DNA of 64,000 nucleotides from Bacteroidia bacterium (GCA_018000995.1 JAGNIU010000007.1:1-64000); one strand, 5' to 3'; positions 2,851-50,747 are shown, counted from the first letter of the stretch. Notes: generated from the sequence alone by a model not told the origin. Made by a program: numbers and translations.

Positions 2851-3090
2851 TTTCTTTATTTAATTTTTTATATTTTTTTTAAATCAGGTCTCTTTTTCCA
2901 ATCTGAGCTTTTTAACCGTTCTGCAGGTTCAGTGTATAAGCTACTAGTTGGTGACACAAAGATAAGTGGTTAAAAAGGTATTATGCAACACATAGTACTA
3001 AAAAAGTATATAAGTAATTGAAAATCAATGAGAATAATTTTTTAGCAATCCCATAAAAAAGCGTAAATTTGTAATCTCTACAATAAAATA

Positions 3091-11262: not shown

Positions 11263-11284
11263 TTTTGACATTAGAACAAAAAAA

Positions 11285-11331
11285 CCTCGCCTGTCATCGT
11301 GAGCTTGACGAACGGCGAGGGCTTTTTTATT
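11285..11331 (+). terminator. rho-independent terminator after thioredoxin paralog
   Basis: cctcgcc..ggcgagg 7-bp stem then GCTTTTTTATT; loop contains a variant of the GTGAGCTTGACGAA repeat core. Confidence 0.6.
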
Positions 11332-11698: not shown

Positions 11699-11720
11699 TG
11701 TACATGTAAAAAAATCGGTT

Positions 11721-11799
11721 AAGTACGAATAACGAGGTACGATTGACGAGTAATGAAGTGCTAGTTGTCCTATTCTTCACTCGTACTTCGTCAATCGTA
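11721..11799. terminator. long imperfect palindrome (about 35-nt arms) flanked by T/A runs; bidirectional terminator after flotillin gene
   Basis: aagtacgaa..gtacgattgacgag / ctcgtacttcgtcaatcgtacttcgtactt inverted arms; T-run on both strands. Confidence 0.5.
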
Positions 11800-11807
11800 C
11801 TTCGTAC

Positions 11808-13730
11808 TTATTTTTTCTTCTCATCTGTCTTACCGCCATCTTCCACCATCTTTTTAGTGATGCCTTCTAATAGTTGCAAGCCAAGCAATCCGCTTATTGG
11901 TCCGTTAGCACCATCACCACCTCCGGTAATTAATACTTCAGGAATAATTTTGATGCGTTCTCTACCAATGGCTTCAGTCACTTTTAATTTCGTAAAGTTA
12001 TCTCCGCCCATTGCACTAACTGATAATTTATAAGCTTCAGCATTCGATTTACCAATGGCTAAAATCTTTTCAGCTTCTGCATTACCGGTTACAGATATTT
12101 TTTCTGCTTCAGCATTTGCTAAGGCTTTTACTTTTTCAGCTTCGGCGTTTGCAGTTACTTTTGTTTTTTCTGCATCAGCATTAGCAATTATTTTTAATCT
12201 GTCAGCTTCTGCTACCGAAGCAATTTTTACACTTTGTGCCTCACCGGTTGCTTTTTTTACTGCGGCATCTGCAATACGTTCAGAAATTAATACACCTTGA
12301 TCAGCTTTTACAATTTCCTTTTGCATATCTGCAACAGCCGTTTCTTTTTCTAAAGCCTGACGAGTTATCTCAGCACGTTTCTGAGTTTCGAAAGTTGTGT
12401 TTTGTTCTTCAGCAATTTTACGATCGGTTAATGTTTTCATTAAACTCTCTGGTGGAACGATATCTCCAATTAAAGTATCTACACCATTTACGTTATATTG
12501 ATCTAAAACTTCACTGATTCTTTTCTTAGCAGCATCTTGTCTTTCTTTACGTGAACTTAAGAAAGCAATTACATCACTGTCTTGCGCTGAGTTTCTAAAA
12601 TAGTTACCAATAGTTGGTTCTAAAACTTGTCCAACTAAATTTACCATGTTACCAAAACGTGCAATTACTTTCGGTGCCTCAGTGGTTGGTATATGAATAA
12701 TCTGACTCACATCTAAATTAAAAGGGAAACCATCTTTAGAACGAACAGTGATTGTACTTAAATGTTTATCTAATTGATGCGCCTCACTGCGTGCATTGGC
12801 CCAGTTTAAAACTAAGTTAGTTGTTGGCACTAATTCAACACGCATAATGTAAGTGTTGATTGGGTATTTACCCGGACCAAGCGGTTCAGCCCAAACACCT
12901 TTTTCACCTTTGCTTACAATGTTACCGTGTTTAAAATCGGTACCGCTTAAATCTTTTCCTTCCTGACCAACATAAGAAATAACAACTCCAACAGAACCAA
13001 TCGGAATCTCTGTCATTTTAATTTGTTCTACAGTAGCAAACCATGGATTTAGATAATAAGAACCCGCTAAAATAACTTGTGGCTGTAAACCTTTGTTACC
13101 GCTATTGTTTAAAAATCCATCCGTATCCTGAAAGTTGTTGTGTCCTGTAATGTTTTTACCGGCAATACTTCCTTCTTCAATTGGCATACCATCTAAAGTG
13201 GTAACAATTCCCACCATGTTTTCATTTACAGTAAACATATCTACAGTAAAAATCTCGAATAAAAAGGTATTGATACGGTAAGTTCCTGCAGTAATATGAG
13301 CACTTTGGCGACCTTTTCGTCCGCCTTTAGTCAGGAAAGCAACAGCATCCTGAAAACCATCGCATTCAACTTTGCGAGCTAAAATATGACCGGTTTCTAA
13401 TTCAGCACCATCTTTTGCCACTAATAAACCAATTTTTCCTTGAGGGATAATGGTTAAAGGTTGCATAGTAATTTCGTACTGCCAAATCCATTTCCAGAAG
13501 TAAATTCCCGGTGCTAAGGTTTGAGCCTGAAAACCGGCTTCACCCTCAACGGCAACAATTCGCCCGGGAGGAAGTTCAGATTTACCAAATAAAACAAACT
13601 TCTTGGTTACTAAACCAATTTTGTCTTCAGCAATGATAATGATACCAAATAGTCTGAAAAACAGTTTGTAAAAGATCAACACGAATACGGGGATTATAGT
13701 CCACCAGTAATTCACAATAAAATTCATCAT
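11808..13730 (-). CDS. flotillin / SPFH (band 7) domain protein, YqiK-like, with C-terminal A-E-A-E-K repeats
   Basis: 640 aa; N-terminal TM, SPFH domain, C-terminal tandem NAEAEKx repeats typical of bacterial flotillins. Confidence 0.8.
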   Translation of the reverse strand: MMNFIVNYWWTIIPVFVLIFYKLFFRLFGIIIIAEDKIGLVTKKFVLFGKSELPPGRIVAVEGEAGFQAQTLAPGIYFWKWIWQYEITMQPLTIIPQGKIGLLVAKDGAELETGHILARKVECDGFQDAVAFLTKGGRKGRQSAHITAGTYRINTFLFEIFTVDMFTVNENMVGIVTTLDGMPIEEGSIAGKNITGHNNFQDTDGFLNNSGNKGLQPQVILAGSYYLNPWFATVEQIKMTEIPIGSVGVVISYVGQEGKDLSGTDFKHGNIVSKGEKGVWAEPLGPGKYPINTYIMRVELVPTTNLVLNWANARSEAHQLDKHLSTITVRSKDGFPFNLDVSQIIHIPTTEAPKVIARFGNMVNLVGQVLEPTIGNYFRNSAQDSDVIAFLSSRKERQDAAKKRISEVLDQYNVNGVDTLIGDIVPPESLMKTLTDRKIAEEQNTTFETQKRAEITRQALEKETAVADMQKEIVKADQGVLISERIADAAVKKATGEAQSVKIASVAEADRLKIIANADAEKTKVTANAEAEKVKALANAEAEKISVTGNAEAEKILAIGKSNAEAYKLSVSAMGGDNFTKLKVTEAIGRERIKIIPEVLITGGGDGANGPISGLLGLQLLEGITKKMVEDGGKTDEKKK

Positions 13731-21845: not shown

Positions 21846-22394
21846 TTATTTTTTATAAGGATAATTCCTGTTTTTAGGAATATTATTCACTATCATAGCT
21901 ATCACAAATAAAATCGCCACACCTGTCATTACCGGTGAAAGGATATAAGTGAATCCTAAATTTTTAATTTTTTCAGAACCAATATTAGCAATTAAAGCGG
22001 TTGCCCCACCGGGAGGATGCATCGTTTTTGTGATTTGCATCGCAACAATAGAAAGTGAAACAGAAAGAGCAGAAGACAGCCACAACATATCAGGAATCAT
22101 TTTATAAATACAAACTCCAATTATTGCCGAAATTAAATGCCCGCCAATTAAATTGCGAGGTTGTGCCAGCGGACTATTAGTCGCCCCAAATATTAAAACA
22201 GCGGTGGCGCCAAAAGAACCAATTAAGAAAATATTATCGTACTCGGTAAATTGTTTGCTTTGAATAAAACCTATGGCAGCAATTCCTAAAAAGGCACCTA
22301 TAAAAGTCCAGAGATGATCTAGTGGCTCAAGAAGCGTTTCTTTGTACACAACATATTTAGCAAGGCGGTAAGTCCGCTTAATTTTTTGCTTCAT
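21846..22394 (-). CDS. HPP family membrane protein
   Basis: 182 aa; 4 TM; MHPPGGATALIA motif. Confidence 0.75.
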   Translation of the reverse strand: MKQKIKRTYRLAKYVVYKETLLEPLDHLWTFIGAFLGIAAIGFIQSKQFTEYDNIFLIGSFGATAVLIFGATNSPLAQPRNLIGGHLISAIIGVCIYKMIPDMLWLSSALSVSLSIVAMQITKTMHPPGGATALIANIGSEKIKNLGFTYILSPVMTGVAILFVIAMIVNNIPKNRNYPYKK

Positions 22395-22412
22395 GTTGTA
22401 AAGGTACAGATT

Positions 22413-23165
22413 TTACTTTAGTCGTTTCACTTCTATCATCCAATCCCATGGATAAGGTTTTCCTAATCCTTTTGGTGGCGATGCAAATTCAGAATCCCAT
22501 CCAAATTCAATTTTCTTAATCGCCTCGATTGAGAAATTAGCGTTGTTAAATAAAGTATAAAGTTCTTGCAATAAATAATGTTTTGTGGGGTGACCATCAA
22601 TTGCCACAATTCCGTTTTGTACCCAATCTAAACTAAAATGTTTTGGATTGAGTTCGTCTTTCGGAATTTTATTAATCTTAACGCCATCTTTTTTATACAT
22701 TTTCAATAACTGCATAAATGCTAAAGAAGCAGATTCGTAAGAAGGAATAACAATAACAGCAGCACCGCCTTTTTTTAAACCACTTACTACAGTATTTAAA
22801 ATGGCGTAATTCTTTTTGTTATCATCACAAATAGCAACATTACAACAATAGGCAAAATCTACTTTAGGAATACTTTGCGGTTTGGTCAGGTCGCCTTGTT
22901 TTAAGGTAACGTTCTTTAATTTTAATTTAGCGGCTTGGTCTAATAACTTTTGCGAGATATCAATGCCAATCACGCTTTTAAAATTAGGAGCTAAAAAGGG
23001 TAGAGCATAACCGATACCGCAACCGAAATCAACAGCCGTTTTATTTTTACCAATATGTTTAGCAATGTGTTTTTTTACGACACCTTTTTTATCGGAATGC
23101 AATACGCTAAAAATTTCTTTATCGTAATTATAACCTACGGTATCCCAAACTATTTTCTCGTTCAT
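22413..23165 (-). CDS. class I SAM-dependent methyltransferase
   Basis: 250 aa; motif I VDFGCGIGY. Confidence 0.65.
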   Translation of the reverse strand: MNEKIVWDTVGYNYDKEIFSVLHSDKKGVVKKHIAKHIGKNKTAVDFGCGIGYALPFLAPNFKSVIGIDISQKLLDQAAKLKLKNVTLKQGDLTKPQSIPKVDFAYCCNVAICDDNKKNYAILNTVVSGLKKGGAAVIVIPSYESASLAFMQLLKMYKKDGVKINKIPKDELNPKHFSLDWVQNGIVAIDGHPTKHYLLQELYTLFNNANFSIEAIKKIEFGWDSEFASPPKGLGKPYPWDWMIEVKRLK

Positions 23166-23212
23166 AAAATATTATTGTTTTACTAAGGTAATAAAGTAAA
23201 TGAATTATGCAA

Positions 23213-23396
23213 AGGGAGAGAGGAGTTGAGTTTTAAACCTTCTGCAATCTAACCCCTCTAACATCCGCCTTTGGCGGATTAGGCTTTCTCCCCTTAAAAA
23301 AGGGGAGAAGTTTTTTTTGGAGTACGAATAAAATTCTCCCCCTTTTTTAAGGGGGAGTACCCGCAGGGGGAGGGGGTTAGTTTTTGAACTCAACCT
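23213..23396. repeat. GC-rich nested palindromic intergenic element (about 185 bp) with C5TT..AAG5 hairpins
   Basis: Outer imperfect IR ggagttgagtttt / aaaactcaacc; inner hairpins atccgcctttggcggat, ctccccttaaaaaaggggag, ctcccccttttttaagggggag; overlaps last codons and stop of GNAT gene. Confidence 0.65.
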
Positions 23397-23904
23397 TCTT
23401 TATCTGATAAATAAAGTTCAGATTAGAGTCCTCACCAAAATATTCTATTTCCTCTTCTGCAATTTTAACAGCACCAATTTTTTCAATAGCTCTTTGTGAA
23501 CGGATATTTTTTGCGCCAATATGAAATATCACATTATCTACAAACTGAAAAGCATATTGCATCATCAAGTGCTTACAACTTGGATTATATTTACCGCCCC
23601 AATGCGAGCGGGCGTAAAATGTATAACCAATAGCCACTGTACTTTTTTCTAAATCCCAATCATAAAAACGGGAACTGCCTATTGGCTCGTTGGTTTTTGC
23701 ATCGTAAATTAAAAATGCACCTTTGCTTTCTATCGCACCTTTAAAAAAGTTTTGAAATACTTCGCGTTGCCAGCGATTTTTGTTGGGATGTTGTTCCCAA
23801 ATTAATGGGTCGCTTGCTACTTTGTACAAAATTTCAAAATCAGTTTCTTTTAAAGGAACCAGTTTTACAAATTCATTTTCAAGTGTAGGTTGAATATTTT
23901 CCAA
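23377..23904 (-). CDS. GNAT family N-acetyltransferase (RimJ/RimL-like)
   Basis: 175 aa; acetyl-CoA binding region (IGAKNIRSQRAIEKIGA). Confidence 0.7.
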   Translation of the reverse strand: MENIQPTLENEFVKLVPLKETDFEILYKVASDPLIWEQHPNKNRWQREVFQNFFKGAIESKGAFLIYDAKTNEPIGSSRFYDWDLEKSTVAIGYTFYARSHWGGKYNPSCKHLMMQYAFQFVDNVIFHIGAKNIRSQRAIEKIGAVKIAEEEIEYFGEDSNLNFIYQIKKVEFKN

Positions 23905-23906
23905 TC

Positions 23907-24383
23907 TTATTTTTTCTTAATAGGTATCCAAATCTCTTCTTCAGAATCAGGATCGTTGTTTTTGTAGTTGGGGCCTAATATTTCAAAATGCGGACGGTTA
24001 TCTAAAGTGTATTCTGATTTTGGCAACCATTCTGAAAAAATATAATTAAAAATGCTTGAATCAGTATTTAAACCTTTGTAATGGAATACTGCATACAAAC
24101 CTTCGGGCAAATTAAATATTTCCATACCCTCAGGAATAGAATTGGAATCACTCACTTCCAATAATGCCCATTTTTCAAATTCGTTATTGGGATTAAAAGC
24201 TTTAAAATAATTGGCATCATAAGTTTGTAAAGAAAATAGATCACTGCCAATTACATTCTTAATTTCATTTCGTCTAAGCATAAAACTTTTCCATAGCTCG
24301 CCTGTTTTGTTATTGGCTAAGCTCATGGTAATGCGGTTACCAATTAAAGTTTTTGAAGAAAGTGATTTTATTTCAGGCTGCAT
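23907..24383 (-). CDS. GyrI-like small-molecule-binding domain protein
   Basis: 158 aa; fold pattern of AraC-effector/GyrI-like proteins; 3-bp gap to GNAT gene. Confidence 0.5.
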   Translation of the reverse strand: MQPEIKSLSSKTLIGNRITMSLANNKTGELWKSFMLRRNEIKNVIGSDLFSLQTYDANYFKAFNPNNEFEKWALLEVSDSNSIPEGMEIFNLPEGLYAVFHYKGLNTDSSIFNYIFSEWLPKSEYTLDNRPHFEILGPNYKNNDPDSEEEIWIPIKKK

Positions 24384-24417
24384 ACATTTGATTTAAATCA
24401 ATTCAAATGTAATAATT

Positions 24418-24606
24418 TTATTTTTTTCCCTTTGATTTGCCTTTTGTATGTCCGGGATTAGTAGTTGCAGGGTGATGAGGGTTATTCCTGTTTTTAGTCC
24501 AGCCTTTACGTTGTCCATTGTCTGTTCTAACAACTAAACAAGAGGTTTGGCTAAGCATAAGTGCTGCGGTAATGGTAATGCCTAGTATGGCTTTAAGTGC
24601 TTTCAT
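24418..24606 (-). CDS. small basic His/Pro-rich lipoprotein (hypothetical)
   Basis: 62 aa; lipoprotein signal (LMLSQTSC); short, so low confidence. Confidence 0.35.
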   Translation of the reverse strand: MKALKAILGITITAALMLSQTSCLVVRTDNGQRKGWTKNRNNPHHPATTNPGHTKGKSKGKK

Positions 24607-24760
24607 TAAAATGTTTTAGGTAATGTAAATGTGACTTAATTAAATGTAAGCAAAAGGAAGCACAACTCGGACTAATATAGACCGGGGGCATGAAAGGCTC
24701 GATGTAATTGTGTAAGTAAATAGAGTTTTTAGAGCTTTAAGACGAATAACCTATTATCAG

Positions 24761-25099
24761 TTATTTCAAAAATTCGCCATCTACAATTAATAGTCTAACA
24801 CCATTCTCTGAATAAGAACGATGAGAACTTAAATTATCAGATACCACATAACTTTCGCCTTTGTGGAGTTTTTGTTTCTCTCCGGTTTTTAATTCGGTAA
24901 TGAAATCTCCTTCTAAACAATGCACCACGTGACCTTTCTCACACCAATGGTCGGCTAAGTAACCTGCGCCATATTCTACAATACGAATTCTTAAACCGCC
25001 TAATTGAACGGTTTGCCAAGTGGAAGTTCCTGTTTCTCCTTTGTGTTCTGTTTTTTCGATGCTTGACCAGTCGATGGTTGTGAAGGGGATAGTTTTCAT
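24761..25099 (-). CDS. DHCW-motif cupin fold protein
   Basis: 112 aa; contains literal DHWCEKGHVVHC motif of the DHCW cupin family. Confidence 0.65.
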   Translation of the reverse strand: MKTIPFTTIDWSSIEKTEHKGETGTSTWQTVQLGGLRIRIVEYGAGYLADHWCEKGHVVHCLEGDFITELKTGEKQKLHKGESYVVSDNLSSHRSYSENGVRLLIVDGEFLK

Positions 25100-25111
25100 T
25101 GTAAATTTATT

Positions 25112-26071
25112 TTAGCAATAGCGTGCGTTATAAATGAACCAGATATTTAATACAAGATAAATAATTATTAGCAGATTGGAAGCGATTTTATCAAAACGCT
25201 GCATTTCTTCCACTTTATTTTTTTTAAGGAGTGATAAAGAAAATGCAGAACAAATCACAATAGCGAGGATAAAAAGCAAGGCCAACCCGTGAAGTGTGTC
25301 CACTAAGGTAAATGTAGTTGACTCCGGCAAGGCAGAATCCACAACATACTTATTACCAATAACACCAAATAAGGAACCAATGCTTAAACCAAAACGCGAT
25401 TCAATGCTATCACGGTGAATGAAGAAACACAGGAACGATAAAAGAACAGAAATAAACATTCCAATAAATAATTTAAGAAATAGCCACCAGGAATCTCTTT
25501 CGATGCCAATCTGCATTTTAAAGGCGCTGAATTTAGATTGAGGTTTTGCTAAGTCTTCATCTCCAAAACCGGTTTCATATTTTTTTTCGTAAGTAGTAAT
25601 ATTAAAGCTATCCGTAATAACACGCCAACCGGAAAGTGTCCATTTAGAATAATGTTGACCAACAGTATCTTCAACAAAAACTAAAGCATCTGAATCGTAT
25701 TGGGAATTCTCTATAGTAAATCTTAGTTTCTGTTTATCGAATGGGAAGTTGTCGATTTTCCAGGAGTCGCGCATAACACATTGCAGTTTCATCATCATGT
25801 AAATTCTGCCATCATCTAAAGTATCAATGGTGTAAAAAGATTTATCCACTTCTTTCGCCATTGGCACTTCCAAAAATTTAGAGAAATCAAATTCAACATT
25901 CCTGTATTTTAACCAAAGCCAAAGGTTAATAGTGTATTGTTTCTCTCTGAAATCAATATCGTGAATGCTATTGATATAAACACCAACAGTAACGGTATCC
26001 GGATGTTTAGCTTCTTTAGAGAAAGAGGATTGAAAAACGAATAGGAGTAAAAGAGAAAGTAATTTCTTCAT
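25112..26071 (-). CDS. prokaryotic pentameric ligand-gated ion channel (Cys-loop receptor family) homolog
   Basis: 319 aa; signal peptide; about 200-aa beta-rich ectodomain with VTVGVYINSIHDIDFREKQYTINLWLWL and FPFDKQKL (Cys-loop-equivalent motif); pre-M1 Arg; four TM helices with M3-M4 loop; size matches GLIC/ELIC. Confidence 0.7.
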   Translation of the reverse strand: MKKLLSLLLLFVFQSSFSKEAKHPDTVTVGVYINSIHDIDFREKQYTINLWLWLKYRNVEFDFSKFLEVPMAKEVDKSFYTIDTLDDGRIYMMMKLQCVMRDSWKIDNFPFDKQKLRFTIENSQYDSDALVFVEDTVGQHYSKWTLSGWRVITDSFNITTYEKKYETGFGDEDLAKPQSKFSAFKMQIGIERDSWWLFLKLFIGMFISVLLSFLCFFIHRDSIESRFGLSIGSLFGVIGNKYVVDSALPESTTFTLVDTLHGLALLFILAIVICSAFSLSLLKKNKVEEMQRFDKIASNLLIIIYLVLNIWFIYNARYC

Positions 26072-26086
26072 TTTTCGGGAACGCGA

Positions 26087-26827
26087 TTATTTTGTTTTTA
26101 TATAAATGTGTTTGATGTTTCTATTGCCGGTTTCACGTTGATCAATTTCGAAACGGTTTGTGCTTTTTATAAGGGGTAATAGTTTTGTAAAACCATAATT
26201 CCTCGGATCAAAATCAGTTTTCTTTTTCAAGATAAAACTTCCTAATTCTCCTAAAAAGGTCCAGCCGCTTTCGTCTGCTAAATCTATTACGCTTTCTGTT
26301 AATAATCGTATCAAAGCTTCATCAACTCTGTTTAAAGGAGCGCTTTCTGTTTTTACTTTATTTGGTTTGCCCGATTCTTTTGTCGCAGATTTAGCAGATT
26401 TCAGAATTTCTATATAAACAAATTTATCACAAGCTTTAATAAATGGTGAAGGTGTTTTTTTCTCACCAATGCCAATCACTTTCATGCCGGCTTCTCTTAA
26501 TCGTGTAGCGAGCCTTGTAAAATCACTGTCGCTCGACACTATACAAAAACCATCAACTTTTTCTGAATATAAAATATCCATCGCGTCAATTATCAGTGCA
26601 CTATCGCTTGAGTTCTTTCCTGTGGTGTAGCTGTATTGTTGAATAGGAGTGATGGCGTTTTCAAGCAACACATTTTTCCATCCTGAAAGAGTAGGGCGGG
26701 TCCAATCGGCGTAAATTCTTTTTATAGTGGGGGTTCCGCTTATTGCAATCTCTTCTAACATTTCTTTAATGTGAGAATAGGGTACATTATCAGCGTCAAT
26801 TAAAACAGCAAGGCGTAGGTCGGTCAT
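26087..26827 (-). CDS. NYN-domain (LabA-like) protein with C-terminal OST-HTH/LOTUS domain
   Basis: 246 aa; NYN PIN-like core (LAVLIDADNV..DSALIIDAMD..IVSSDSDFTRLATRLREAGMKVIGIG); C-terminal about 80-aa helical OST-HTH-like region. Confidence 0.75.
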   Translation of the reverse strand: MTDLRLAVLIDADNVPYSHIKEMLEEIAISGTPTIKRIYADWTRPTLSGWKNVLLENAITPIQQYSYTTGKNSSDSALIIDAMDILYSEKVDGFCIVSSDSDFTRLATRLREAGMKVIGIGEKKTPSPFIKACDKFVYIEILKSAKSATKESGKPNKVKTESAPLNRVDEALIRLLTESVIDLADESGWTFLGELGSFILKKKTDFDPRNYGFTKLLPLIKSTNRFEIDQRETGNRNIKHIYIKTK

Positions 26828-26936
26828 TTTCTTTAAATTTATTTCAGTTTCTAATAAGATTTAGAAGGTGAAGTTTAAAGATACGTCTTAAAGAGGCGGA
26901 TTGCAAATGGGTGACAATAGTAATATTCTTTAAAAT

Positions 26937-27692
26937 TTACCCGCCATGTCGGCCACAGCGACCCGTGGTTGTCATAGCTCTGCATTGTTCTGAGTCTCTG
27001 GATGTGTGTGATCTTGCATGCGGAGGAATATAATCGTAAGCAGAACAACGTCTTTTTGGTTTGCCTGCATCTAATGAGTCTTGTATATGCTTTAACCAAC
27101 GCATCCGTATTTCAGCACGTTTAGCTTTCATTAAAAGGGAATCTTTATATGTATCAAATCCCACCGTGTCGCTTACCTTACCATTACACACATCCCTGAA
27201 ATACGAAAACTGCCAACTAAGATTGTTGTCAGAATTAATTCTGTACGATTGAAATTTTTCTTCACACGCAGGATCTCCACTTCTGTAATTTCCATCTTCA
27301 GTTATACAATCACACATACTTGGTCCGGGTGAAGAAGTAAATACTTTCATCGGGTCGGCATTCAAAAGTTTAAATTGTTGTTCGGCGCCGGGTAGACAAA
27401 ACCATTCGCTTTTTATAAATTCATCATAGCTTGTAGTAGATGGAATGTTTTTTTCTTGCTGACGATAACGATATAATGAATACAACCAATTGTCCCACAA
27501 AGAAACGGTATCAACAGCCTCTTTATTTTTAATGAGGAACAAACCTAATTCACGATTGTAGCTAATGGAGTAGGGACCGGGCGCGGAACTTAATAATAAA
27601 TCATCGGCTGAGGGTTGGCTACAGGATACTAATAAAACAGAAACAAGAATTGAAAACTGTTTCAGAAATTTTGTGAAGGGGATTTTGTTCAT
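26937..27692 (-). CDS. hypothetical Cys-rich secreted lipoprotein
   Basis: 251 aa; lipoprotein signal (LLVSCSQP); many Cys in C-terminal half; no recognisable family. Confidence 0.4.
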   Translation of the reverse strand: MNKIPFTKFLKQFSILVSVLLVSCSQPSADDLLLSSAPGPYSISYNRELGLFLIKNKEAVDTVSLWDNWLYSLYRYRQQEKNIPSTTSYDEFIKSEWFCLPGAEQQFKLLNADPMKVFTSSPGPSMCDCITEDGNYRSGDPACEEKFQSYRINSDNNLSWQFSYFRDVCNGKVSDTVGFDTYKDSLLMKAKRAEIRMRWLKHIQDSLDAGKPKRRCSAYDYIPPHARSHTSRDSEQCRAMTTTGRCGRHGG

Positions 27693-27781
27693 TTAATGTT
27701 TCTGGTTTAAGGTTTCGTGTTTCTGTTTTAAGAATTTTGCCTATGAATTAGAAGTATGAATTTATACTAGTTAACGGTTTG

Positions 27782-27888
27782 CGGCTTGGCGTTGTGCGGG
27801 TTTTCGGAGAAGAATTTGTCGGCAAGACAAATGCTTATTTGGAAACCTGCACTTCATTTTACTTGAATACCCGCATAACGCCAAGCCG
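27782..27888. repeat. GC-rich 20-bp inverted repeat (cggcttggcgttgtgcgggt / acccgcataacgccaagccg) with inner hairpin
   Basis: 20/21 complementary arms separated by about 67 bp containing atttgtcggcaagacaaat hairpin; lies just 3' of the OLD-like gene. Confidence 0.55.
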
Positions 27889-27901
27889 TTGTTATGCCCA
27901 G

Positions 27902-29674
27902 TTATTTAAATTTTACAATATCATCTGTCGTTATTCCTTGGTCTGAACTTAAAGAAACTTCAAAAGCTGGTAAAAAGTCTACAGAAGATTCAATAGTCAA
28001 TTTGAAAGTGCTTTTATTCCAATCTAATGTCTTTAAAGAAAATAATTGATCAATTTTTAACTCTTGATATTTTGAAATTTTCGACAATGCCTCTGTACTT
28101 GCTGGTCTTTCCTCTAAAATAATGGATTGAATTTTGGCCAACACTTTAATAATTTCACTTCGCATAAATTTCGTATTATCAAAAGTGTCAAATATTATAG
28201 ATTGAATAAAAGCTAATAGTGTGGCATATCGCTTCTCTACATCAGCTCTGTCCTCAGTTTTTAGCAATTCATATTCAATATCAAATAATTTAATTTTTTC
28301 CTTGTCATCATCAGGACTTACTGGTGTCGATTGATAAAATGTTTCTAAGGAACCTGTCGGAATAATAAAAAATCCAGCTTTAGACAATATGGATATGGAA
28401 AATGAAGTGGAATCAACAAGCAAATCAATTACGGGATCTAATTTCGAATTTTGCAGTATGGCTTTTGTTAAGGCAGGATATTTATTTATTAATTCTAAAG
28501 TTAAGCTTTTCGAATTATCTGTTTTCTTTTTAATTCTGTAAAGATGAGGATATATATTATTTCCCGAATCAGTTGTTTTAAAATGCGCATCATCTACTTT
28601 TATCAATTCTTCTAATAAATTCCCTAAATTATCTCTAATATTTTTGCTAACATAATCTTGAATATTTGTTGCTATTGCTGAAAGTTCTTTAATTACGATT
28701 GGATGATTATTAAATTTGTCTAATAATTTACTTTCAATTAAACAGTCTAAGTCGCCAATGTAAAACGAAGGTTTAGCAATTGCTTGACAGAGTAAATGTA
28801 GGGTTGAAAAGTCATCCTTTCCTCCAGTTTCTACAATACTAAAATCATTTCTACTGATGTCAATATCGCATTTTTCTAGGACTTTCTTAAAGATTACTTT
28901 GTCACGAAATCCCTCACAAAAAACTACACCTTTTGAATGAACTAATAGCCACTTTTCGGAGTCAAGTCTAAGCAAACTTTTCTCTAAGTGTATTTTTTGT
29001 CCAGGTGTTAAAGTTGTGAAATCAGGTTTTGTTCCACCTAACACTTGCGGGTCAGAAAAAAAAGTTGCTTGTTCTAATTCCTCAATCGACTCAGGGGCAA
29101 AGAATATCGGTGAATGAGTCGCCAACCAAAATTCAATATTTTTTTCTTTTATAAGTCGAAGCATTTCATTTTTTAAAAATCTTTGGGCTTCTGGATGTAA
29201 CGAAAGTTCTGGTTCGTCAATAAAATATTTTTTAGATAAGCCTGAATTGATAAATGTCAAAATTATTAGCAACTCTCTAAGACCAGAGCTTTCACCTTCA
29301 AAATCGTATCGAGGAATCGACACTGTCTCAAAAAAATCATTGTCAAGTCCAGACGTTACCTTAAAATTTTGTGTTCGTTCAATAATTTCTAAGGAAAAAT
29401 TACGGCCAAGCTTTCTCGATAATATTTGAAACACAGTATATCTCAGTTTTGCGTTGTCTCGCAATAACGACATTGCAACTTGGTCGGGATGGGTTTTACT
29501 ATATTGTAAAAATTGCGAAGTAAATTCTTTGGTTTGAGAATCATTAAACTGTTTAACGTTGTTTGTTCTTTGTTTCGGAACATAAAACCCTCTATTGTCT
29601 TCACAAAGCTTACTAAGGGCTCTTGTCTTTCCAGTTCCATTTGGTCCAACTAAATAATGGATGTTTTTTTTCAT
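27902..29674 (-). CDS. ABC-type ATPase fused to TOPRIM-like (OLD family / DUF4435-like) nuclease domain; candidate anti-phage defence protein
   Basis: 590 aa; Walker A GPNGTGKT, signature-like ESSGLRELL, Walker B YFIDEPELSLHP, H-loop LATHSP; then VVFCEGFRDK..VETGGKDDF..YIGDLDCLIESK (E..DxD TOPRIM-like); about 250-aa helical C-terminus. Confidence 0.6.
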   Translation of the reverse strand: MKKNIHYLVGPNGTGKTRALSKLCEDNRGFYVPKQRTNNVKQFNDSQTKEFTSQFLQYSKTHPDQVAMSLLRDNAKLRYTVFQILSRKLGRNFSLEIIERTQNFKVTSGLDNDFFETVSIPRYDFEGESSGLRELLIILTFINSGLSKKYFIDEPELSLHPEAQRFLKNEMLRLIKEKNIEFWLATHSPIFFAPESIEELEQATFFSDPQVLGGTKPDFTTLTPGQKIHLEKSLLRLDSEKWLLVHSKGVVFCEGFRDKVIFKKVLEKCDIDISRNDFSIVETGGKDDFSTLHLLCQAIAKPSFYIGDLDCLIESKLLDKFNNHPIVIKELSAIATNIQDYVSKNIRDNLGNLLEELIKVDDAHFKTTDSGNNIYPHLYRIKKKTDNSKSLTLELINKYPALTKAILQNSKLDPVIDLLVDSTSFSISILSKAGFFIIPTGSLETFYQSTPVSPDDDKEKIKLFDIEYELLKTEDRADVEKRYATLLAFIQSIIFDTFDNTKFMRSEIIKVLAKIQSIILEERPASTEALSKISKYQELKIDQLFSLKTLDWNKSTFKLTIESSVDFLPAFEVSLSSDQGITTDDIVKFK

Positions 29675-29785
29675 TTTATTGTCTGTCTATATAATTGGGC
29701 ATAACTAGTGGATAAGCGCCACAAACAAATATTTACAAACGGTTATAAATATTTAAAGTGCTTTCCAATAATAAATATACAAAAT

Positions 29786-31012
29786 TTACTCCTCCTTTGG
29801 TTGTAGCTTATGGATTTTTTTAGTTCCGGCGTACATTTCGAATTTAAAGAGGCGGCATTCGAGAGAGCCGTTGAAGAGTGTTATTTTACGGGTAGGGCGG
29901 AGGCCAATATATTTTGCAGCTTCTAAATTAGACGTTATAATCCAACAGGTCCAACCACTAAAATCTTTTTTAAGTTTGTCGCCAATTTGTTTGTAGAAGG
30001 AAGCAATGTCTTCGTGTTTCATCCGCTCATCGTAAGGCGGGTTCAATAACACAGTGCCCATTGGTTTGTCAACCTTCATATCAAAAAAGGATTTGCGGCT
30101 GAATTGTATAGCGTCATCCACTTTTGCAACGGCAACATTTATTTTTGCAACGTTTAAACTTTTATCGGATAAATCGTTCGCTACAATATTCGGCATGTCT
30201 TCTTTAATGCGGCTTATTGCAGATTCGTAAATGGTATCGTATAATTTCTCGTCGTAATTTTTCCAACGCATGAAACCAAATTCTTTTCTGAAAATTCCCG
30301 CAGGAATATTTCCGGCAAACAATGCGGCTTCAATAGCTAAAGTTCCACTACCACACATACCATCAATCAAAGGTAAATGCGGTTGCCATCCTGAGATGAG
30401 TACAATTCCAGCTGCTAAAACTTCTTTAATCGGTGCTTCAATAATATCTTCACGGTAACCGCGCTTGTATAAAATATCGCCACTGCTATCTAAACTCACA
30501 CTCACATCATCTTTAAAAATGTGAACATAAATACGAAGCGTCGGCGCTTTTAAATCCACACTCGGACGTAAATCACCACTTATCTCTCTGAATCTATCGC
30601 AAATCGCATCTTTGGTTTTTTGCTCAACATATAAACTATGCTGAAAAAATTCCGAATTCGGTACACCTTCAACAGCGAGTGTATCCGTCACCTTCATAAA
30701 ATCATCCCAAGGAAATTTTTTAATACCGTCGTATAATTCCTGATCGCTCGTTGCTTTGAATTTGTAAATTGGAATCAAAACACGCAAAGCCACACGTGAA
30801 CATAAATTCACTTTGTACATGTAACCGATATCACCCTTTACAGAAACACCACGTTTAAATGGTTCAATGTCTTTACCGCCTAAACGTAATAATTCAGCTG
30901 CCAATACTTCTTCGAGTCCGAAAAAGGTTGTCACCTTCATTTCAAAATCGCCGGTAGTATTAAAATCGAAGTTTATTTTTTTGGGAGCAAGGTTTAGGTC
31001 GGGGGTATCCAT
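29786..31012 (-). CDS. THUMP-domain class I SAM-dependent RNA (m2G) methyltransferase, RlmL/RlmK N-terminal-like
   Basis: 408 aa; THUMP region then DGMCGSGTLAIEAAL (motif I) and NPPYDERM (motif IV). Confidence 0.75.
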   Translation of the reverse strand: MDTPDLNLAPKKINFDFNTTGDFEMKVTTFFGLEEVLAAELLRLGGKDIEPFKRGVSVKGDIGYMYKVNLCSRVALRVLIPIYKFKATSDQELYDGIKKFPWDDFMKVTDTLAVEGVPNSEFFQHSLYVEQKTKDAICDRFREISGDLRPSVDLKAPTLRIYVHIFKDDVSVSLDSSGDILYKRGYREDIIEAPIKEVLAAGIVLISGWQPHLPLIDGMCGSGTLAIEAALFAGNIPAGIFRKEFGFMRWKNYDEKLYDTIYESAISRIKEDMPNIVANDLSDKSLNVAKINVAVAKVDDAIQFSRKSFFDMKVDKPMGTVLLNPPYDERMKHEDIASFYKQIGDKLKKDFSGWTCWIITSNLEAAKYIGLRPTRKITLFNGSLECRLFKFEMYAGTKKIHKLQPKEE

Positions 31013-31058
31013 TGTTTTTGATTGAGGTGTAAAGGTAGGGAAATTTATGGAAAGTGGG

Positions 31059-31124
31059 GCTTCGGCTACGCTCAGCCACCACTATGTCTTACGGGCGCAC
31101 CGGTGCCTGAGCGGAGTCGAAGGC
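31059..31124. repeat. palindromic unit of GCTGAGC..GTCGAAG repeat family (variant copy)
   Basis: gcttcggctacgctcagcc .. cctgagcggagtcgaaggc inverted pair; read through by the spurious N-terminal extension of the 31047 ORF. Confidence 0.55.
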
Positions 31125-31160
31125 ACACTAGATATCTTAATTTTTCCTATATTCGATACG

Positions 31161-32585
31161 ATGAAAAGAATGTTTTTTGTATATACGATTTTGGTGCTGG
31201 TTTTTTTATCGCTTGATGTTAAAAGTAAGACCACTCAAGCGGAAATGGATAGTGTAAAAAACGTTTACAGTAATTCTAAAGATCAATACGTGCGTGCCAG
31301 AGCAATGAACTGGATTATTACGCATTACCAGCAACAGTACGATTCAGCTTATTATTATTTACAAGTGGCGGTGCAGGGTTTTAAGCTTAGCAATTATAAG
31401 TTTGGTGAGGCCTGGGCCAAGCATTCGTTTGGTATTTCTTGTGTTGAAAATGCACATTATGAAGACGCAAAAAAATATTTAAATGAGGCTATAGCTGAGT
31501 ACGCATCAATGGGAAATGATTCCATGATAGGGAAAGCAAAAATTAGAGTTGCATTCACACATTATTCTCAAGGTAATTATGAAGCTTCTATCAAAACTTA
31601 TCTTGAGGCTGTTGAGTCTGCACAAAAAGCTAAAGATCTTTATACAGAAGCCTGGGCTTATAATTTGTTGGGTCTGGTATTATATAATAAACCAACTCCT
31701 GATAACAAATTAGCACTGGAATACTATAATAAGTCGCTCGATATTCATAGGAAAAAGAATAATATACAGGGTTTTGGTATGGTGATGATGCGGATGGGTT
31801 CCGCTTATTCAAGACTTGGTGATGATGCCAACGCCATTTATTATTTAAACAGGGCCATGGCACTTGGTGATAGTTTAGAACAGGGTTTTCTGGTTAAGTG
31901 GACTTTGTCTGCCTATTCAAAATATTACATGGAGCGGAAAGACTATTTAAAATCGAACGAAATTGAAAAGCGCGCAAAATATTTATCACTTGATGCCGGT
32001 GATTTTCCGGGTGTAATTATTTCTTACAAAAATATAGCTTCAAATAATTATAATTTAAAAGATTATAAGTTGGCATTAGTAAACATTGACAGCGCATTAT
32101 ATTATAGTACAAAACATGGCGTTTTACAAAAGATTGATGAGATATATGAGATAAAATCCGACATCCATCATAAGCTCGGACAAACCGAAGAAGCTTTGGT
32201 TTGTTATAAGAGATCGGTAGCCTTACGTGATTCATTATTTTCGATTAAGAATAATAATAACATAAACGAATTACAAACCCGCTTTGAGACCAATGAAAAG
32301 GAAAAAGCAATTGAGTTATTGAATAGTGAAAAAGAAAGCGAGAGAAAAGTAAGAAATGTTTTATTGGGAGCATTCATTGTTGCGCTTCTATTGATTGCAT
32401 TAATTGTATTCGCACTAATTAAAATTAACAAGGCAAGAAAAGAAATTCAACATCAAAAAAAGATAGTCGATCAAAAACAAAAAGAAGTTATGGATTCGAT
32501 TAATTACGCCACACGAATTCAAAAAGCCTTAATGCCTACTGAGAAGTATATTGAGAAAATATTAAATAAGAATAGGAAAAATTGA
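31161..32585 (+). CDS. TPR-repeat membrane protein, truncated at onset of a SpoIIE/PP2C-type phosphatase domain
   Basis: Start at ATG 31161 (MKRMFFVYTILVLVFL signal); multiple TPRs; TM (LLGAFIVALLLIALIVFALI); coiled coil; ends ..INYATRIQKALMPTEKYIEKILNKNRKN right after the conserved I.YA.RIQ.A.LP entry motif. Confidence 0.55.
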   Translation: MKRMFFVYTILVLVFLSLDVKSKTTQAEMDSVKNVYSNSKDQYVRARAMNWIITHYQQQYDSAYYYLQVAVQGFKLSNYKFGEAWAKHSFGISCVENAHYEDAKKYLNEAIAEYASMGNDSMIGKAKIRVAFTHYSQGNYEASIKTYLEAVESAQKAKDLYTEAWAYNLLGLVLYNKPTPDNKLALEYYNKSLDIHRKKNNIQGFGMVMMRMGSAYSRLGDDANAIYYLNRAMALGDSLEQGFLVKWTLSAYSKYYMERKDYLKSNEIEKRAKYLSLDAGDFPGVIISYKNIASNNYNLKDYKLALVNIDSALYYSTKHGVLQKIDEIYEIKSDIHHKLGQTEEALVCYKRSVALRDSLFSIKNNNNINELQTRFETNEKEKAIELLNSEKESERKVRNVLLGAFIVALLLIALIVFALIKINKARKEIQHQKKIVDQKQKEVMDSINYATRIQKALMPTEKYIEKILNKNRKN

Positions 32586-32594
32586 TAGCGGCAC

Positions 32595-32657
32595 TTCGAC
32601 AAGCTCAGCGACCGCTTTGCTCGAGAGTAGTAATCCGGTGGCTGAGCTTGTCGAAGC
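32595..32657. repeat. palindromic unit of GCTGAGCTTGTCGAAGC repeat family (perfect 16-bp arms)
   Basis: cttcgacaagctcagc (32595-32610) and gctgagcttgtcgaagc (32641-32657) separated by 30 bp; between convergent genes. Confidence 0.7.
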
Positions 32658-32669
32658 CACTGGTTAAGG

Positions 32670-33089
32670 TTACTTCTCGTAAGCAGCAACCGCCTCTTTC
32701 CATGCAGATGGAATTTCAACAGTTTGTTTTATTTCGTAGTTAAAGCAAACTATGACGCTTTTTCCGTGCGCACACACCAGCTCTTCCTTACCTACTTTTT
32801 TTGTGATGAGATTGGAGATTTCGAAACTTTTTGTACCAAAAGAAGTTATTTTGGTGTAACAAAAGCATTCGTCATCCATATAGACAGGTTCTGAATAATC
32901 TATTTCAGTCTTTGCAAGAATCATACCTGTTTTGTTCCAGTCGTTTTTAATTAAGAGATCGTTGAAATACTTAACGCGCGCTGTTTCAAAATACGTAATG
33001 TGATTCGCATTGTTAACGTGACCTTGAATATCCACATCCTTGTAACGGATTTGAATTTGTAATTTGTGTTTGAAATCTTTTGGTTCCAT
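32670..33089 (-). CDS. acyl-CoA thioesterase (hotdog fold, YbgC/4HBT-like)
   Basis: Hotdog thioesterase motifs (YKDVDIQGHVNNANHITYFE); ORF track start 33116 lies inside the arm of the GC-rich palindrome; internal Met at 33089 (MEPKDF) more plausible. Confidence 0.65.
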   Translation of the reverse strand: MEPKDFKHKLQIQIRYKDVDIQGHVNNANHITYFETARVKYFNDLLIKNDWNKTGMILAKTEIDYSEPVYMDDECFCYTKITSFGTKSFEISNLITKKVGKEELVCAHGKSVIVCFNYEIKQTVEIPSAWKEAVAAYEK

Positions 33090-33110
33090 AATTTTATTTT
33101 TTTTCTTCGA

Positions 33111-33233
33111 GGACATCCCCCCGTCGGCGCCTTCGGCGGACGTCCCCCTTTGAAGGGGGAATGTGTTAGCGCTTAGGCATCGTGGTTATTCCCCCTTCGA
33201 AGGGGGACGTCACGCAGTGACGGGGGGATGTCC
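33111..33233. repeat. GC-rich nested palindromic element (123 bp) with C5-6TT..AAG5 hairpins
   Basis: Outer IR ggacatccccccgtc / gacggggggatgtcc; inner hairpins gtccccctttgaaggggga, ttcccccttcgaagggggac, gtcacgcagtgac. Confidence 0.7.
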
Positions 33234-33234
33234 T

Positions 33235-34212
33235 TTACGTTTGCCTATTCAATAAAGCATGCGCCATTTCTTCGAGGGCAATTTTCTTATCTGACTTTGC
33301 TTTTATATCGTGTAAATGTTTGATGGCTTGTTTAGTGTGTTTGTCGGCCTCTTGTTTGCAAAATGCTTTTATATTGAACTCATTATAAATTGACAAAACA
33401 CCTTGTACTTTTTTTGTGGCCTCGGTTTCTTTTAAGGCAGACAATAACTTTTCTTTTTTAGAAGCGCCTGCTAATTCAAAGGCTTTTAATAATAAGAATG
33501 TTTTTTTATTGGCGATGATATCGCCGCCCACTTGCTTTCCAAAATTTTCTCCTTCAGCGTAAGCATCCAATAAATCATCCATTAATTGAAACGCAATTCC
33601 TAAATGTTTTCCGAATTCGTAAATGTGATTCGCGTCATCAGGATGCGCTTCGGCGCAAATAGCTCCCATTTTTAAACTACAGCCTAAAAGAACTGCAGTT
33701 TTATTGGTAATCATGTGAATGTAATCAGCAACAGTAACTGAATCGCTGCTTTCAAAATTCATATCCTCTTGCTGACCTTCACAAACTTCAATTGCAGTTT
33801 TAGAAAATTCAGTCAATAATAATTTTAATTTTTGCGCTTCAGTATTTTTTAAAACATCAAAAGCTTTCACCAACATCACATCACCACTTAAAATAGCAAT
33901 ATCAGAATTCCATTTGCTGTGAACAGTTGCTTGTCCACGGCGCAAAGGGGCTTTATCTAAAATATCGTCGTGAATGAGCGAGAAATTATGAAACAACTCT
34001 ACACATAATGCAGCATCTAAAGCGTCGTCCGCTTTCTTGTCAAATAAATCACAAGCAATTAAAGCTAGAAGCGGGCGAATACGTTTTCCGCCAAGAGATA
34101 AAATATAATTTTCCGGGTCGTAAAGTTCGCGCGGTTGTTTTTTGTCCAGTCCTTTAATGTAATTATCAAGGTGCGCATTAAATAATTCTAATAAAGACTG
34201 ATAATTTTTCAC
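33235..34212 (-). CDS. polyprenyl diphosphate synthase (IspA/IspB family)
   Basis: 325 aa; two Asp-rich motifs LIHDDILDK and QLMDDLLD. Confidence 0.85.
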   Translation of the reverse strand: MKNYQSLLELFNAHLDNYIKGLDKKQPRELYDPENYILSLGGKRIRPLLALIACDLFDKKADDALDAALCVELFHNFSLIHDDILDKAPLRRGQATVHSKWNSDIAILSGDVMLVKAFDVLKNTEAQKLKLLLTEFSKTAIEVCEGQQEDMNFESSDSVTVADYIHMITNKTAVLLGCSLKMGAICAEAHPDDANHIYEFGKHLGIAFQLMDDLLDAYAEGENFGKQVGGDIIANKKTFLLLKAFELAGASKKEKLLSALKETEATKKVQGVLSIYNEFNIKAFCKQEADKHTKQAIKHLHDIKAKSDKKIALEEMAHALLNRQT

Positions 34213-39695: not shown

Positions 39696-39794
39696 GCCCG
39701 CTTATTGAACAAATAAACGGTAAACCCCCATTTTAAGGGAGTTCTTTTCTCGAAAATTTATTTATATTTGGTTCAAACAAATTAAAATTTAATT

Positions 39795-50597: not shown

Positions 50598-50747
50598 ATT
50601 ATTCATTCTTCGTATTGGTAGTAAATATACTGTACCATACGATAGTACTTGGGGGGTGTCCCGAACTTGGCAAGTAATATTATTATCTGTGCTGGTTCTA
50701 CTTATTCTAAGAGTTTGGTGGGGCTGGAATCGAAAAAAGTAAATAAT

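Follow-up and report, generated by a model that had tools for sequence, protein, structure and literature searches.

Paired GC-rich hairpin modules in a Bacteroidia genome and their association with DUF559 endonuclease genes

A 64-kb stretch of DNA from a Bacteroidia bacterium (GCA_018000995.1, JAGNIU010000007.1:1-64000; referred to here as the window) carries two nested palindromes, E1 and E2, built from a hairpin module of about 45 nt. The family of such modules is very probably mobile and cross-phylum, with E1 and E2 among its inserted members. The module constitutes the inverted ends of many DUF559 genes, and is widespread, multi-copy and structurally constrained. [quoted passage not shown]

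The window has a G+C content of about 35% and is 99.99% identical to a contig of the metagenome-assembled genome (MAG) GCA_020050275.1 at NCBI; the nearest homologs of its proteins are found in MAGs annotated as Bacteroidia or Sphingobacteriaceae. A preliminary description of this DNA reported two GC-rich nested palindromes, and both are present where it placed them; they span 23218-23400 (E1) and 33111-33233 (E2). Hairpins of the form CCCC(C)TT..AAGGGG(G) occur four times in the 64 kb, always inside E1 or E2, with 0.06 expected, and the most GC-rich 40-nt stretch of the window is, by a wide margin, E2. Both elements fold more stably than shuffled sequences, E1 at -83.5 kcal/mol as RNA (z -5.7; z -5.2 as DNA) and E2 at -93.5 kcal/mol (z -9.6; z -9.5 as DNA). 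In an independent Logan assembly of SRR11088415, E2 is intact and 100% identical to the window, and E1 is present, also at 100% identity, up to the end of a contig that terminates inside it; the elements are therefore not artefacts of a single assembler. The Logan contig concerned (L003) corresponds to window positions 22377-23363 and ends within the GCA-triloop hairpin of E1.

E1 and E2 share one ordered architecture rather than a loose set of hairpins. On the plus strand, a C-rich outer arm (TAACCCCTC in E1, GGACATCCCCCCGTC in E2) is followed by a GCC-TTY-GGC hairpin, a C4-5TT..AAG4-5 hairpin, a spacer of 24-25 nt, a TCCCCCTT..AAGGGGGA hairpin, a short GCA-triloop hairpin and a G-rich outer arm. 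The inner hairpins had all been described as having arms made of C or G runs; this is true of two of the four in each element, the other two being triloop hairpins (GCC-TTY-GGC and C-GCA-G). The module, M, consists of the TCCCCCTT..AAGGGGGA hairpin, the short GCA-triloop hairpin, the 3-6-bp stem of which is variable in sequence, and a distal run, G5(A)T or GAGGGGGT. The left half of each element is, in design, the reverse complement of the right half, and E1 and E2 are therefore inverted doublets, rc(M)-spacer-M, where rc denotes the reverse complement; this inverted arrangement allows the outer stem to form from the distal C5 and G5 runs. When R1, a covariance model of M, was run over the whole window with filters off, it found exactly four modules, two per element, and none elsewhere. 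Two sites put forward as degenerate fragments of the family, at 39725-39740 and 50649-50666, are accordingly not members, as R1 finds neither; the 12-mer at 50650 has two mismatches, and about 1.1 such matches are expected by chance. The parts of the two elements are as follows.

23218-23233, plus strand: left arm of the E1 outer stem (GAGAGGAGTTGAGTTT), which pairs with 23385-23400 in the RNA fold.
23250-23309, minus strand: left half of E1, rc(M), with an R1 match at 23260-23309 on the minus strand (13.6 bits, E 0.015); it comprises TAACCCCTC (23250-23258), the triloop hairpin ATCCGCC-TTT-GGCGGAT (23263-23279) and the hairpin TTCTCCCCTT-AAAA-AAGGGGAGAA (23286-23309).
23310-23333, no strand assigned: E1 spacer (GTTTTTTTTGGAGTACGAATAAAA), which on either strand puts a T-run behind the adjoining hairpin.
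23334-23381, plus strand: right half of E1, M, with an R1 match of 53.2 bits (E 2e-15); it comprises the hairpin TTCTCCCCCTT-TTTT-AAGGGGGAG, the triloop hairpin CCC-GCA-GGG (23360-23368) and GAGGGGGTTA (23370-23379).
23385-23400, plus strand: right arm of the E1 outer stem, which pairs with 23218-23233 in the RNA fold.
33111-33163, minus strand: left half of E2, rc(M), with an R1 match at 33112-33163 on the minus strand (25.8 bits, E 1.6e-6); it comprises GGACATCCCCCCGTC (33111-33125), the hairpin GGCGCC-TTC-GGCG (33126-33139) and the hairpin GACGTCCCCCTT-TG-AAGGGGGAAT (33139-33162).
33163-33187, no strand assigned: E2 spacer (GTGTTAGCGCTTAGGCATCGTGGTT), from the sequence and the fold.
33187-33233, plus strand: right half of E2, M, with an R1 match of 45.4 bits (E 7e-13) and support from folding; it comprises the hairpin ATTCCCCCTT-CG-AAGGGGGACGTC (33188-33211), the triloop hairpin CGTCAC-GCA-GTGACG (33208-33222) and GACGGGGGGATGTCC (33219-33233).

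Terminal inverted repeats are thus present in both elements: GACGGGGGGATGTCC is a perfect 15-bp inverted repeat of 33111-33125 in E2, and E1 has 16-nt outer arms and inner arms of 9-10 nt. Sequences closely related to E1 are found at other loci. Modules in L064, L069, L070 and L052 match the right module of E1 at 90-98% identity over 44-60 nt, and the full E1 doublet has a homolog, 77.6% identical over 134 nt, at an unrelated locus of another Sphingobacteriaceae MAG, with compensatory changes in the triloop hairpin (hairpin 1); in the L101 doublet, the ATCCGCC/GGCGGAT stem of E1 is replaced by TTTTGCC/GGCAAAA. The TTGAAC.CAAC tail of the E1 outer arm also trails a lone module in L064, from another Sphingobacteriaceae MAG, and the outer arm therefore extends the module in this lineage.

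The wider family was sought in species-representative genomes with the pattern TCCCCCTT-N2-6-AAGGGGGA-N5-CGCAG, in which the CGCAG flanks were not required to pair. This pattern matched 103 times at 98 loci, about 1.4 matches being expected in random sequence, in Bacteroidota (Bacteroidales, Sphingobacteriaceae and Flavobacteriales), Ignavibacteria, Clostridia, Negativicutes, Hydrogenedentota, Planctomycetota, Chloroflexota, Acidimicrobiia, Cyanobacteria, Proteobacteria and several lineages of the candidate phyla radiation, with multiple copies per genome in Dialister, Alistipes and one Bacteroidota MAG. The small hairpin is closed and accompanied by the G-run in 48 of 82 unique matches, and part of the remainder are reverse-oriented modules with a chance CGCAG. 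Two flavours can be distinguished, one with a GAGGGGGT end (E1-like) and one with a GGGGGAT end (E2-like). R1 gave 282 matches in the 746 kb of the pattern loci, and in their alignment the C5/G5 hairpin is near-invariant, in part through the ascertainment of the matches. The stem of the small hairpin covaries, with 191 cells changed on both sides, versus 63 in shuffles (0 of 500 shuffles reach the observed value); one pair position is UA in 28 cases, CG in 27, GC in 25 and AU in 6, and slid controls collapse. The preliminary description had allowed that further copies might be lacking and that conservation might be of sequence only; there are in fact many copies, and in the small hairpin it is the structure that is retained while the sequence varies.

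Modules occur singly (about 45 nt), as doublets in both relative orientations and in tandem arrays; E1, E2, L101, L034, L079, L061 and L042 are doublets, and the close pairs in the pattern loci number 14 in the -+ and 17 in the +- arrangement. The spacer, which is the only non-palindromic part, differs between copies within one genome (L008, L034, L077 and L088). Four doublets of about 120 bp form a tandem array directly 3' of a P-type ATPase gene in a Clostridiales MAG (L042, 3609-4080). The modules of this array are near-identical, and hairpin 1 of the first unit is unlike that of the later units. In a Candidatus Zambryskibacteria MAG (L086, 1440-1520), a module lies in-frame in rplC and is read as ..PTNLPLAKGEVPQAEGV... 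The predicted L3 protein is only 152 aa long and its gene lies between rpsJ and rplD, as though an internal segment had been swapped for the module; this in-frame copy could be real or an assembly problem. The pattern of hairpin plus G5AT was also found at 120 loci or more in IMG/VR viral contigs (L197-L316), with up to 5-6 copies per contig; BLAST searches of E1 and E2 against PLSDB plasmids gave no match.

Larger assemblages of modules were seen in two groups. At least eight copies of a repeat of more than 150 nt, with conserved flanks on both sides of a ATTCCCCCTAAA-TCCCCCTTTGACAAAGGGGGA module, occur in Alistipes/Rikenellaceae MAGs (L021, L024, L029, L048, L063, L066, L067 and L081), which suggests a larger composite repeat in these bacteria of the gut. 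In the Dialister chromosome NZ_CP181256.1 (L046, 6260-7040; L051, 6030-6850), modules recur every 360-430 nt or so, in complex arrays that also hold other GC-rich hairpins (e.g. GCGCCGCAGGC and GGCGCCAGCCGC).

The two junctions in the window bear the marks of insertion. E1 and E2 both lie between co-directional minus-strand genes, the second neighbour of E1 being a methyltransferase gene. The other features of these junctions are listed here.

23377-23904, minus strand: GNAT acetyltransferase gene (Pfam PF13302), with an ortholog in L115; its 3' end has been replaced by E1.
33235-34212, minus strand: polyprenyl synthase gene, upstream of E2, ending in ..NRQT* versus ..NRQF* in relatives (the last codon and the stop differ).
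32670-33089, minus strand: 4HBT thioesterase gene, on the downstream side of E2; in relatives it adjoins the polyprenyl synthase gene or overlaps with it.
33090-33110, minus strand: 21-nt leader rich in A (gene-strand sequence TCGAAGAAAAAAAATAAAATT) that separates E2 from the ATG at 33089, with no counterpart in L113, L114 or L115.
33102-33112, plus strand: left-hand member of a pair of 11-nt direct repeats (TTTCTTCGAGG); its partner, at 33267-33277, lies in the polyprenyl synthase gene, and the two bracket E2 and the last 11 codons of that gene.

E1 does, as had been proposed, donate the last codons and stop of the GNAT gene: positions 23377-23397 of the minus strand supply seven codons (KKVEFKN) and the stop. 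Homology to the GNAT protein of L115 ceases at ..NLNFIYQI and picks up again just past E1, which stands in place of about 65 nt of the L115 ortholog, including 15 different codons. At the other junction, the gap between the polyprenyl synthase and thioesterase genes is 145 nt (E2 plus the 21-nt leader), versus 5 nt or an overlap (TAATG) in L113/L114 and L115, the polyprenyl synthases of which are 88-89% identical to that of the window. The proposed overlap of E2 with the thioesterase start does not hold, as the ATG at 33116, inside E2, only opens the longest open reading frame (ORF); the true start is the ATG at 33089 (MEPKDFKH...), as in the orthologs, 21 nt outside E2. The leader came with the E2 insertion or later. 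No such hairpins were found in the syntenic DNA of L113 and L115 (20 kb of either). The elements are missing from the orthologous sites of relatives, and E1 and E2 are therefore recent, lineage-specific insertions. The view that structure-forming sequences have been inserted at gene boundaries is thereby upheld, with homologous copies at unrelated loci and in other phyla. The 11-nt repeat around E2, which was reached in 1 of 500 shuffles, may be a weak trace of target duplication; it is given little weight because flanking direct repeats are not enriched over controls across the module family. In L116, the closest relative (polyprenyl synthase 94% identical), a different palindrome-rich insert of about 230 nt (1627-1860) occupies the exact E2 junction, which looks like a recurrent landing site or a site tolerant of insertions.

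The link between the modules and DUF559 emerged when all ORFs of the 98 pattern loci were clustered to find genes recurring near modules. The only family recurring beside modules across taxa was a DUF559 protein of about 115 aa (L017, L019, L059, L062 and L096). A database search with one such protein returned 4222 homologs (E <= 1e-10) carrying PF04480 and PF18741, many of them on very short contigs of 0.5-2 kb. Some DUF559 proteins have been called over-long (about 127-163 aa), and among the matches listed 26 of 26 such extensions are translated modules (for example, ..SPPLEKGGRGDL-M.., ..ESPSVPL.. and ..IPLSPPLRKGE). In L102, a hairpin (TCCCCCTTTGTAAAAGGGGGA-cgaa-GGGGGATTT) is separated by 11 nt from the DUF559 ATG, and at the other end the stop overlaps a second hairpin, AAATCCCCC-tcaa-TCCCCCTTTACTAAAGGGGGA; the ends of the gene are exact terminal inverted repeats of about 34 bp, with a hairpin in each. 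The array in L107 contains a full DUF559 gene, a 3' remnant and a 26-nt remnant consisting of the first plus last codons, each between modules, with spacers of about 100 nt.

This association is orientation-specific. In a sample of 80 metagenomic DUF559 loci, in which modules were sought within 110 nt of the gene, M on the plus strand was found upstream in 41 of 80 cases and the wrong orientation in 13; downstream, M on the minus strand was found in 27 of 75 and the wrong orientation in 8. Overall, 49 of the 80 loci (61%) had a correctly oriented module on either side, versus 6 of 792 background windows (0.8%). At least one M-DUF559-rc(M) unit is an insertion: at a single locus, the unit of L102 is absent from the syntenic site of L318, and L317 also has no DUF559 gene there. 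The extra segment in L102 consists of M-DUF559-rc(M) and about 90 nt, and is bounded by an imperfect (81%) duplication of about 77 nt covering the promoter and first 18 codons or so of a host kinase gene (reverse complement, 2387-2462 and 2993-3071), so that the host gene stays intact. This duplication recalls integrative elements that carry a copy of the target end, or co-conversion tracts in homing. The notion of a general long target duplication, of which the 77-nt repeat of L102 and the 11-nt repeat of E2 would be instances, was considered and set aside, flanking repeats not being enriched over controls.

Alignment of the DUF559 proteins showed D52, E63, D65, H69 and D78 (D, E-x-D, H, D) to be invariant, and their profile matches PDB entry 3hrl (E 5.5e-29) and also 3r3p, the homing endonuclease I-Bth0305I (E 2.4e-4). 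The invariant residues, PF04480/PF18741 and the 3hrl/3r3p matches point to a Vsr-fold core, for the DUF559 units as distinct from E1 and E2. DUF559 has been grouped with Vsr and EDxHD homing endonucleases (PMC3424549, PMC9403480, PMC3239194), and a hairpin just upstream of the start codon has been described for free-standing genes of Vsr-like homing endonucleases (PMC2677866). A reading of the distal G5AT run as a mere Shine-Dalgarno site was rejected: no more than 7-17% of the modules are placed 4-12 nt ahead of the start of an ORF, and their distance from the DUF559 start varies from 2 to 85 nt. Shine-Dalgarno pairing is generally not relied on in the phylum from which the window derives. 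Neither the module nor its link with DUF559 was found described in the literature on DUF559, on Vsr-like endonucleases and repeats, or on cross-phylum palindromic repeats; literature coverage was incomplete, and either may therefore have been described before.

These results suggest a model in which M-DUF559-rc(M) would be the autonomous form of a selfish element, encoding an EDxHD-type PD-(D/E)XK endonuclease of about 115 aa. The endonuclease would nick or cut module hairpins, cruciforms or target sites, and copy-repair from another copy would then spread the modules in a homing-like manner; copies without the gene, whether single modules or doublets such as E1 and E2, would be relics or non-autonomous derivatives, as REPs and REPINs are relative to the REP-associated tyrosine transposase (RAYT). 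The part of this model in which DUF559 is the enzyme propagating the modules is tentative. It is likewise possible, short of probable, that the C5/G5 modules and DUF559 genes form an undescribed, cross-phylum class of selfish DNA, a PD-(D/E)XK counterpart of the REP-RAYT system. In such a class, a Vsr-like gene bounded by inverted modules could conceivably maintain large populations of gene-less singles and doublets, E1 and E2 among them, in bacterial genomes and in contigs of viral collections.

Several observations weigh against this model. The 64 kb of the source genome contains four modules and no DUF559 gene, and, as only these 64 kb were covered, neither multi-copy status nor a partner gene is established for that genome. 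The pairing in E1 and E2, rc(M)-spacer-M, is the opposite of that in the gene-bearing form, M-gene-rc(M). Modules of the E1/E2 type were found beside DUF559 in three loci only (L019, L062 and L096), and those adjoining DUF559 are mostly without the GCA-triloop hairpin and score no more than 35 bits with R1. Among the 120 viral matches listed, a single module locus has a DUF559 gene, so modules far outnumber DUF559. There is no canonical target-site duplication, and the lack of enrichment of flanking repeats is family-wide. The same association would arise if DUF559 homed into pre-existing hairpins, which fits most of the data equally well, and would also arise if the modules were DUF559 expression signals. 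Finally, the near-identity of modules across phyla could stem from shared functional constraint rather than transfer.

The alternative that survives best, itself unlikely, is that the modules are REP-like repeats spread by another enzyme (a RAYT/IS200-type Y1 enzyme or an unknown transposase) or by host recombination, with the DUF559 genes being unrelated selfish genes that preferentially home into the hairpins or survive within them. The organisation of the modules as singles, inverted doublets in both orientations and clusters is that of REPs, bacterial interspersed mosaic elements and REPINs (PMC3116915, PMC3733652), and the modules vastly outnumber the DUF559 genes. The hairpins of E2, moreover, are footed by CGTC/GACG, and REPs tagged with CGTC have been reported without a dedicated transposase (PMC3733652). 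However, no other protein family recurs near the modules in the 98 clustered loci, the GTAG tag is absent and E1 has no CGTC tag. The starts and stops of the DUF559 genes abut modules, to the point of overlap between the stop and AAATCCCCC in L102, and the upstream modules show a specific orientation (correct in 41 of 80, inverted in 13 of 80).

The resemblance to the REP/REPIN-RAYT partnership, which is the closest functional analogue, extends further. Short GC-rich palindromes are dispersed in intergenic DNA as singletons, inverted doublets and clusters (PMC3116915, PMC3337134, PMC3733652); the doublet appears to be the spreading unit, a small enzyme gene lies between two inverted units, and some copies are intragenic. 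The inverted-doublet, REPIN-type arrangement is found in the module family. Membership fails on the GTAG tag and the enzyme class: no module ends in GTAG, CGTC/GACG foots the hairpins of E2 and not those of E1 or of GAG-type modules, and no RAYT gene (IS200/IS605-like Y1) flanked by modules was found in the 98 clustered loci, in which DUF559 is the only recurrent flanked gene. The gene associated with the modules thus encodes a Vsr-like PD-(D/E)XK endonuclease rather than an HUH/Y1 transposase. The module consists of two hairpins and a distal G-run, whereas a REP is a single hairpin, and the same module sequence recurs in many phyla, whereas a REP family is usually confined to one lineage and inherited vertically.

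It is improbable that the elements are host cis-regulatory structures (intrinsic terminators, stabilisers of mRNA 3' ends or intercistronic attenuators) in which C5/G5 and triloop hairpins have arisen by convergence and are not mobile. The position of both elements between co-directional genes and their extreme fold energies would suit such a role, as would the T-run after each inner hairpin of E1. A pattern scan, the only method applied to this question, found the terminator-like combination of hairpin and T-run at the two inner hairpins of E1, one per strand, and not in E2 in either direction. The central hairpins and T-runs of E1 look like a bidirectional terminator, whereas E2 has no U-tail. 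Furthermore, the elements are absent from the orthologous junctions of close relatives, where the genes abut or overlap, and copies are also found inside ORFs (rplC in L086). The ordered, multi-part architecture, together with 90-98% identity at unrelated loci, argues for homology rather than convergence. An attenuator or terminator role is thus possible for E1 only and is not a property of the family. In the DUF559-based model, a doublet between co-transcribed genes would give the transcript a hairpin of very high stability (as RNA, about -84 to -94 kcal/mol), and the new GNAT C-terminus, the intercistronic hairpin and the terminator-like appearance of E1 are plausibly side effects rather than the reason the elements exist.

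There is little to recommend a reading of E1 and E2 as encoding a structured small RNA that acts in trans, or a sensor of the riboswitch type, despite their multi-stem junction and covarying stems. The preliminary description had listed a small RNA among its candidates, and a dedicated small-RNA gene is not supported: the elements are nearly symmetric on the two strands, copies occur in any context, including ORFs, no promoter-like site is specific to the element, and the spacer varies between copies of one genome. A single RNA gene could not account for half-modules, arrays and in-frame copies. At gathering score, Rfam gave no relevant match in the window or in 18 module-bearing loci, and at permissive E-values it gave only generic hairpin or miRNA-like noise for the window, both elements and the 18 loci.

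The weakest alternative, hardly credible, would make the doublets recombination sites, similar to attC, in a cassette array of integron type. Like attC sites (imperfect palindromes of 60-140 bp that lie at gene 3' ends and fold when single-stranded), the doublets are imperfectly palindromic, span 120-185 bp and are found at the ends of genes; AAAC...GTTT lies at the inner edge of the E1 outer stem, the nearby Cass2/GyrI-like and GNAT genes are typical cassette cargo and DUF559 genes alternate with doublets in a cassette-like manner in L107. By inspection, however, E2 has no RYYYAAC/GTTRRRY core sites (R/L boxes), and the scan of genes near the elements revealed no integrase or recombinase; the genes in between are not each flanked by sites of this type, the window has no cassette periodicity and the same gene order is found in L115 without the elements. 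The sole literature match for the hairpin string was to Synechococcus CRISPR repeats, a resemblance that is incidental because there is no repeat-spacer periodicity here.

Other known systems share some of these properties. The suggestion that E1 and E2 are MITEs was correct as to their MITE-like character: like Correia, ERIC and Nezha (PMC10969869), they are inserted, shorter than 300 bp, non-coding, strongly folding and bounded by terminal inverted repeats, and MITEs, too, are inserted at the boundaries of genes and can supply them with codons or a stop. It does not hold for the remaining properties, as there is no short, fixed target-site duplication (none abuts E1 or E2, and E2 has only the offset 11-nt repeat) and no parent encoding a DDE transposase with matching ends was seen; the gene-bearing copies of the module encode a DUF559 endonuclease rather than a known transposase, and the elements contain a repeated sub-module. 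I-Bth0305I (PMC3239194), the catalytic domain of which is matched by the DUF559 profile, is likewise encoded by a small, free-standing gene with presence/absence polymorphism at a conserved locus, and a hairpin immediately upstream of the start codon is shared with Vsr-like homing endonuclease genes (PMC2677866). Known Vsr-like/EDxHD homing genes, among them free-standing genes in "fractured genes" (PMC2677866), however, reside in phage group I introns or between split-intein halves, and have not been reported with inverted terminal hairpin modules or abundant gene-less derivatives. Rickettsia palindromic elements are also palindromic repeats that can be read in-frame, like E1 in the GNAT C-terminus and the L086 module in rplC, but their sequences are unrelated and their hosts different. 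To our knowledge, no gene is associated with Rickettsia palindromic elements. The kind of palindromic repeat described here is known; what appears new is an interspersed family with a different, Vsr-like, associated gene.

Other structured or variable sequences lie in the same region. Between E1 and E2, a 4.7-kb block (about 25100-29800) corresponds to about 0.7 kb with two small ORFs in L115; it contains genes for an OLD-family nuclease (AAA_15/AAA_21 + TOPRIM, 27902-29674) and an NYN/OST-HTH protein and ORFs of 251 and 319 aa, and looks like a small, variable, defence-like island. A separate family of GC-rich hairpins, with motifs such as CTTCGACAAGCTCAGC and GCTACGCTCAGCC, is found at 11282-11325, 31049-31136 and 32584-32656, and is presumably the first hairpin family of the preliminary description. 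One of these hairpins overlaps the start of a TPR ORF (31047), another lies between the TPR and thioesterase genes, and a similar hairpin (GGTGCC-TTCGACAAGCTCAG-GCACC) is found directly upstream of the L064 module. Two inverted repeats of unrelated sequence are also present, one at 11720-11810 (38-nt GTACGA-rich arms and a 15-nt loop) and the other at 27782-27888 (24-nt arms, CGGCTTGGCGTTGTGCGGGTTTTC, and a 59-nt loop), between the OLD-family nuclease gene and the 251-aa ORF.

Few non-coding features of bacterial genomes are commoner than interspersed palindromic repeats. Only for GTAG-type REPs is a dedicated enzyme (RAYT) known, and other families have been reported without one (PMC3733652). 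At the locus studied here, two operon junctions have been remodelled recently: the GNAT C-terminus has been lost and replaced, and the polyprenyl synthase and thioesterase genes, which formerly abutted, now have a hairpin of about -94 kcal/mol between them. The modules also have practical consequences, as they appear to break short-read assemblies and may fragment metagenome assemblies, and as read-through of the ..PL.KGG.. type corrupts the calls of DUF559 and hypothetical proteins and may inflate the number of the latter. The specific, orientation-dependent link with DUF559 gives a testable function to a large family of unknown function, and suggests that hairpin repeats may spread independently of a transposase. 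If the modules and DUF559 genes do constitute a class of selfish DNA, the large DUF559 family would thereby be assigned a role.

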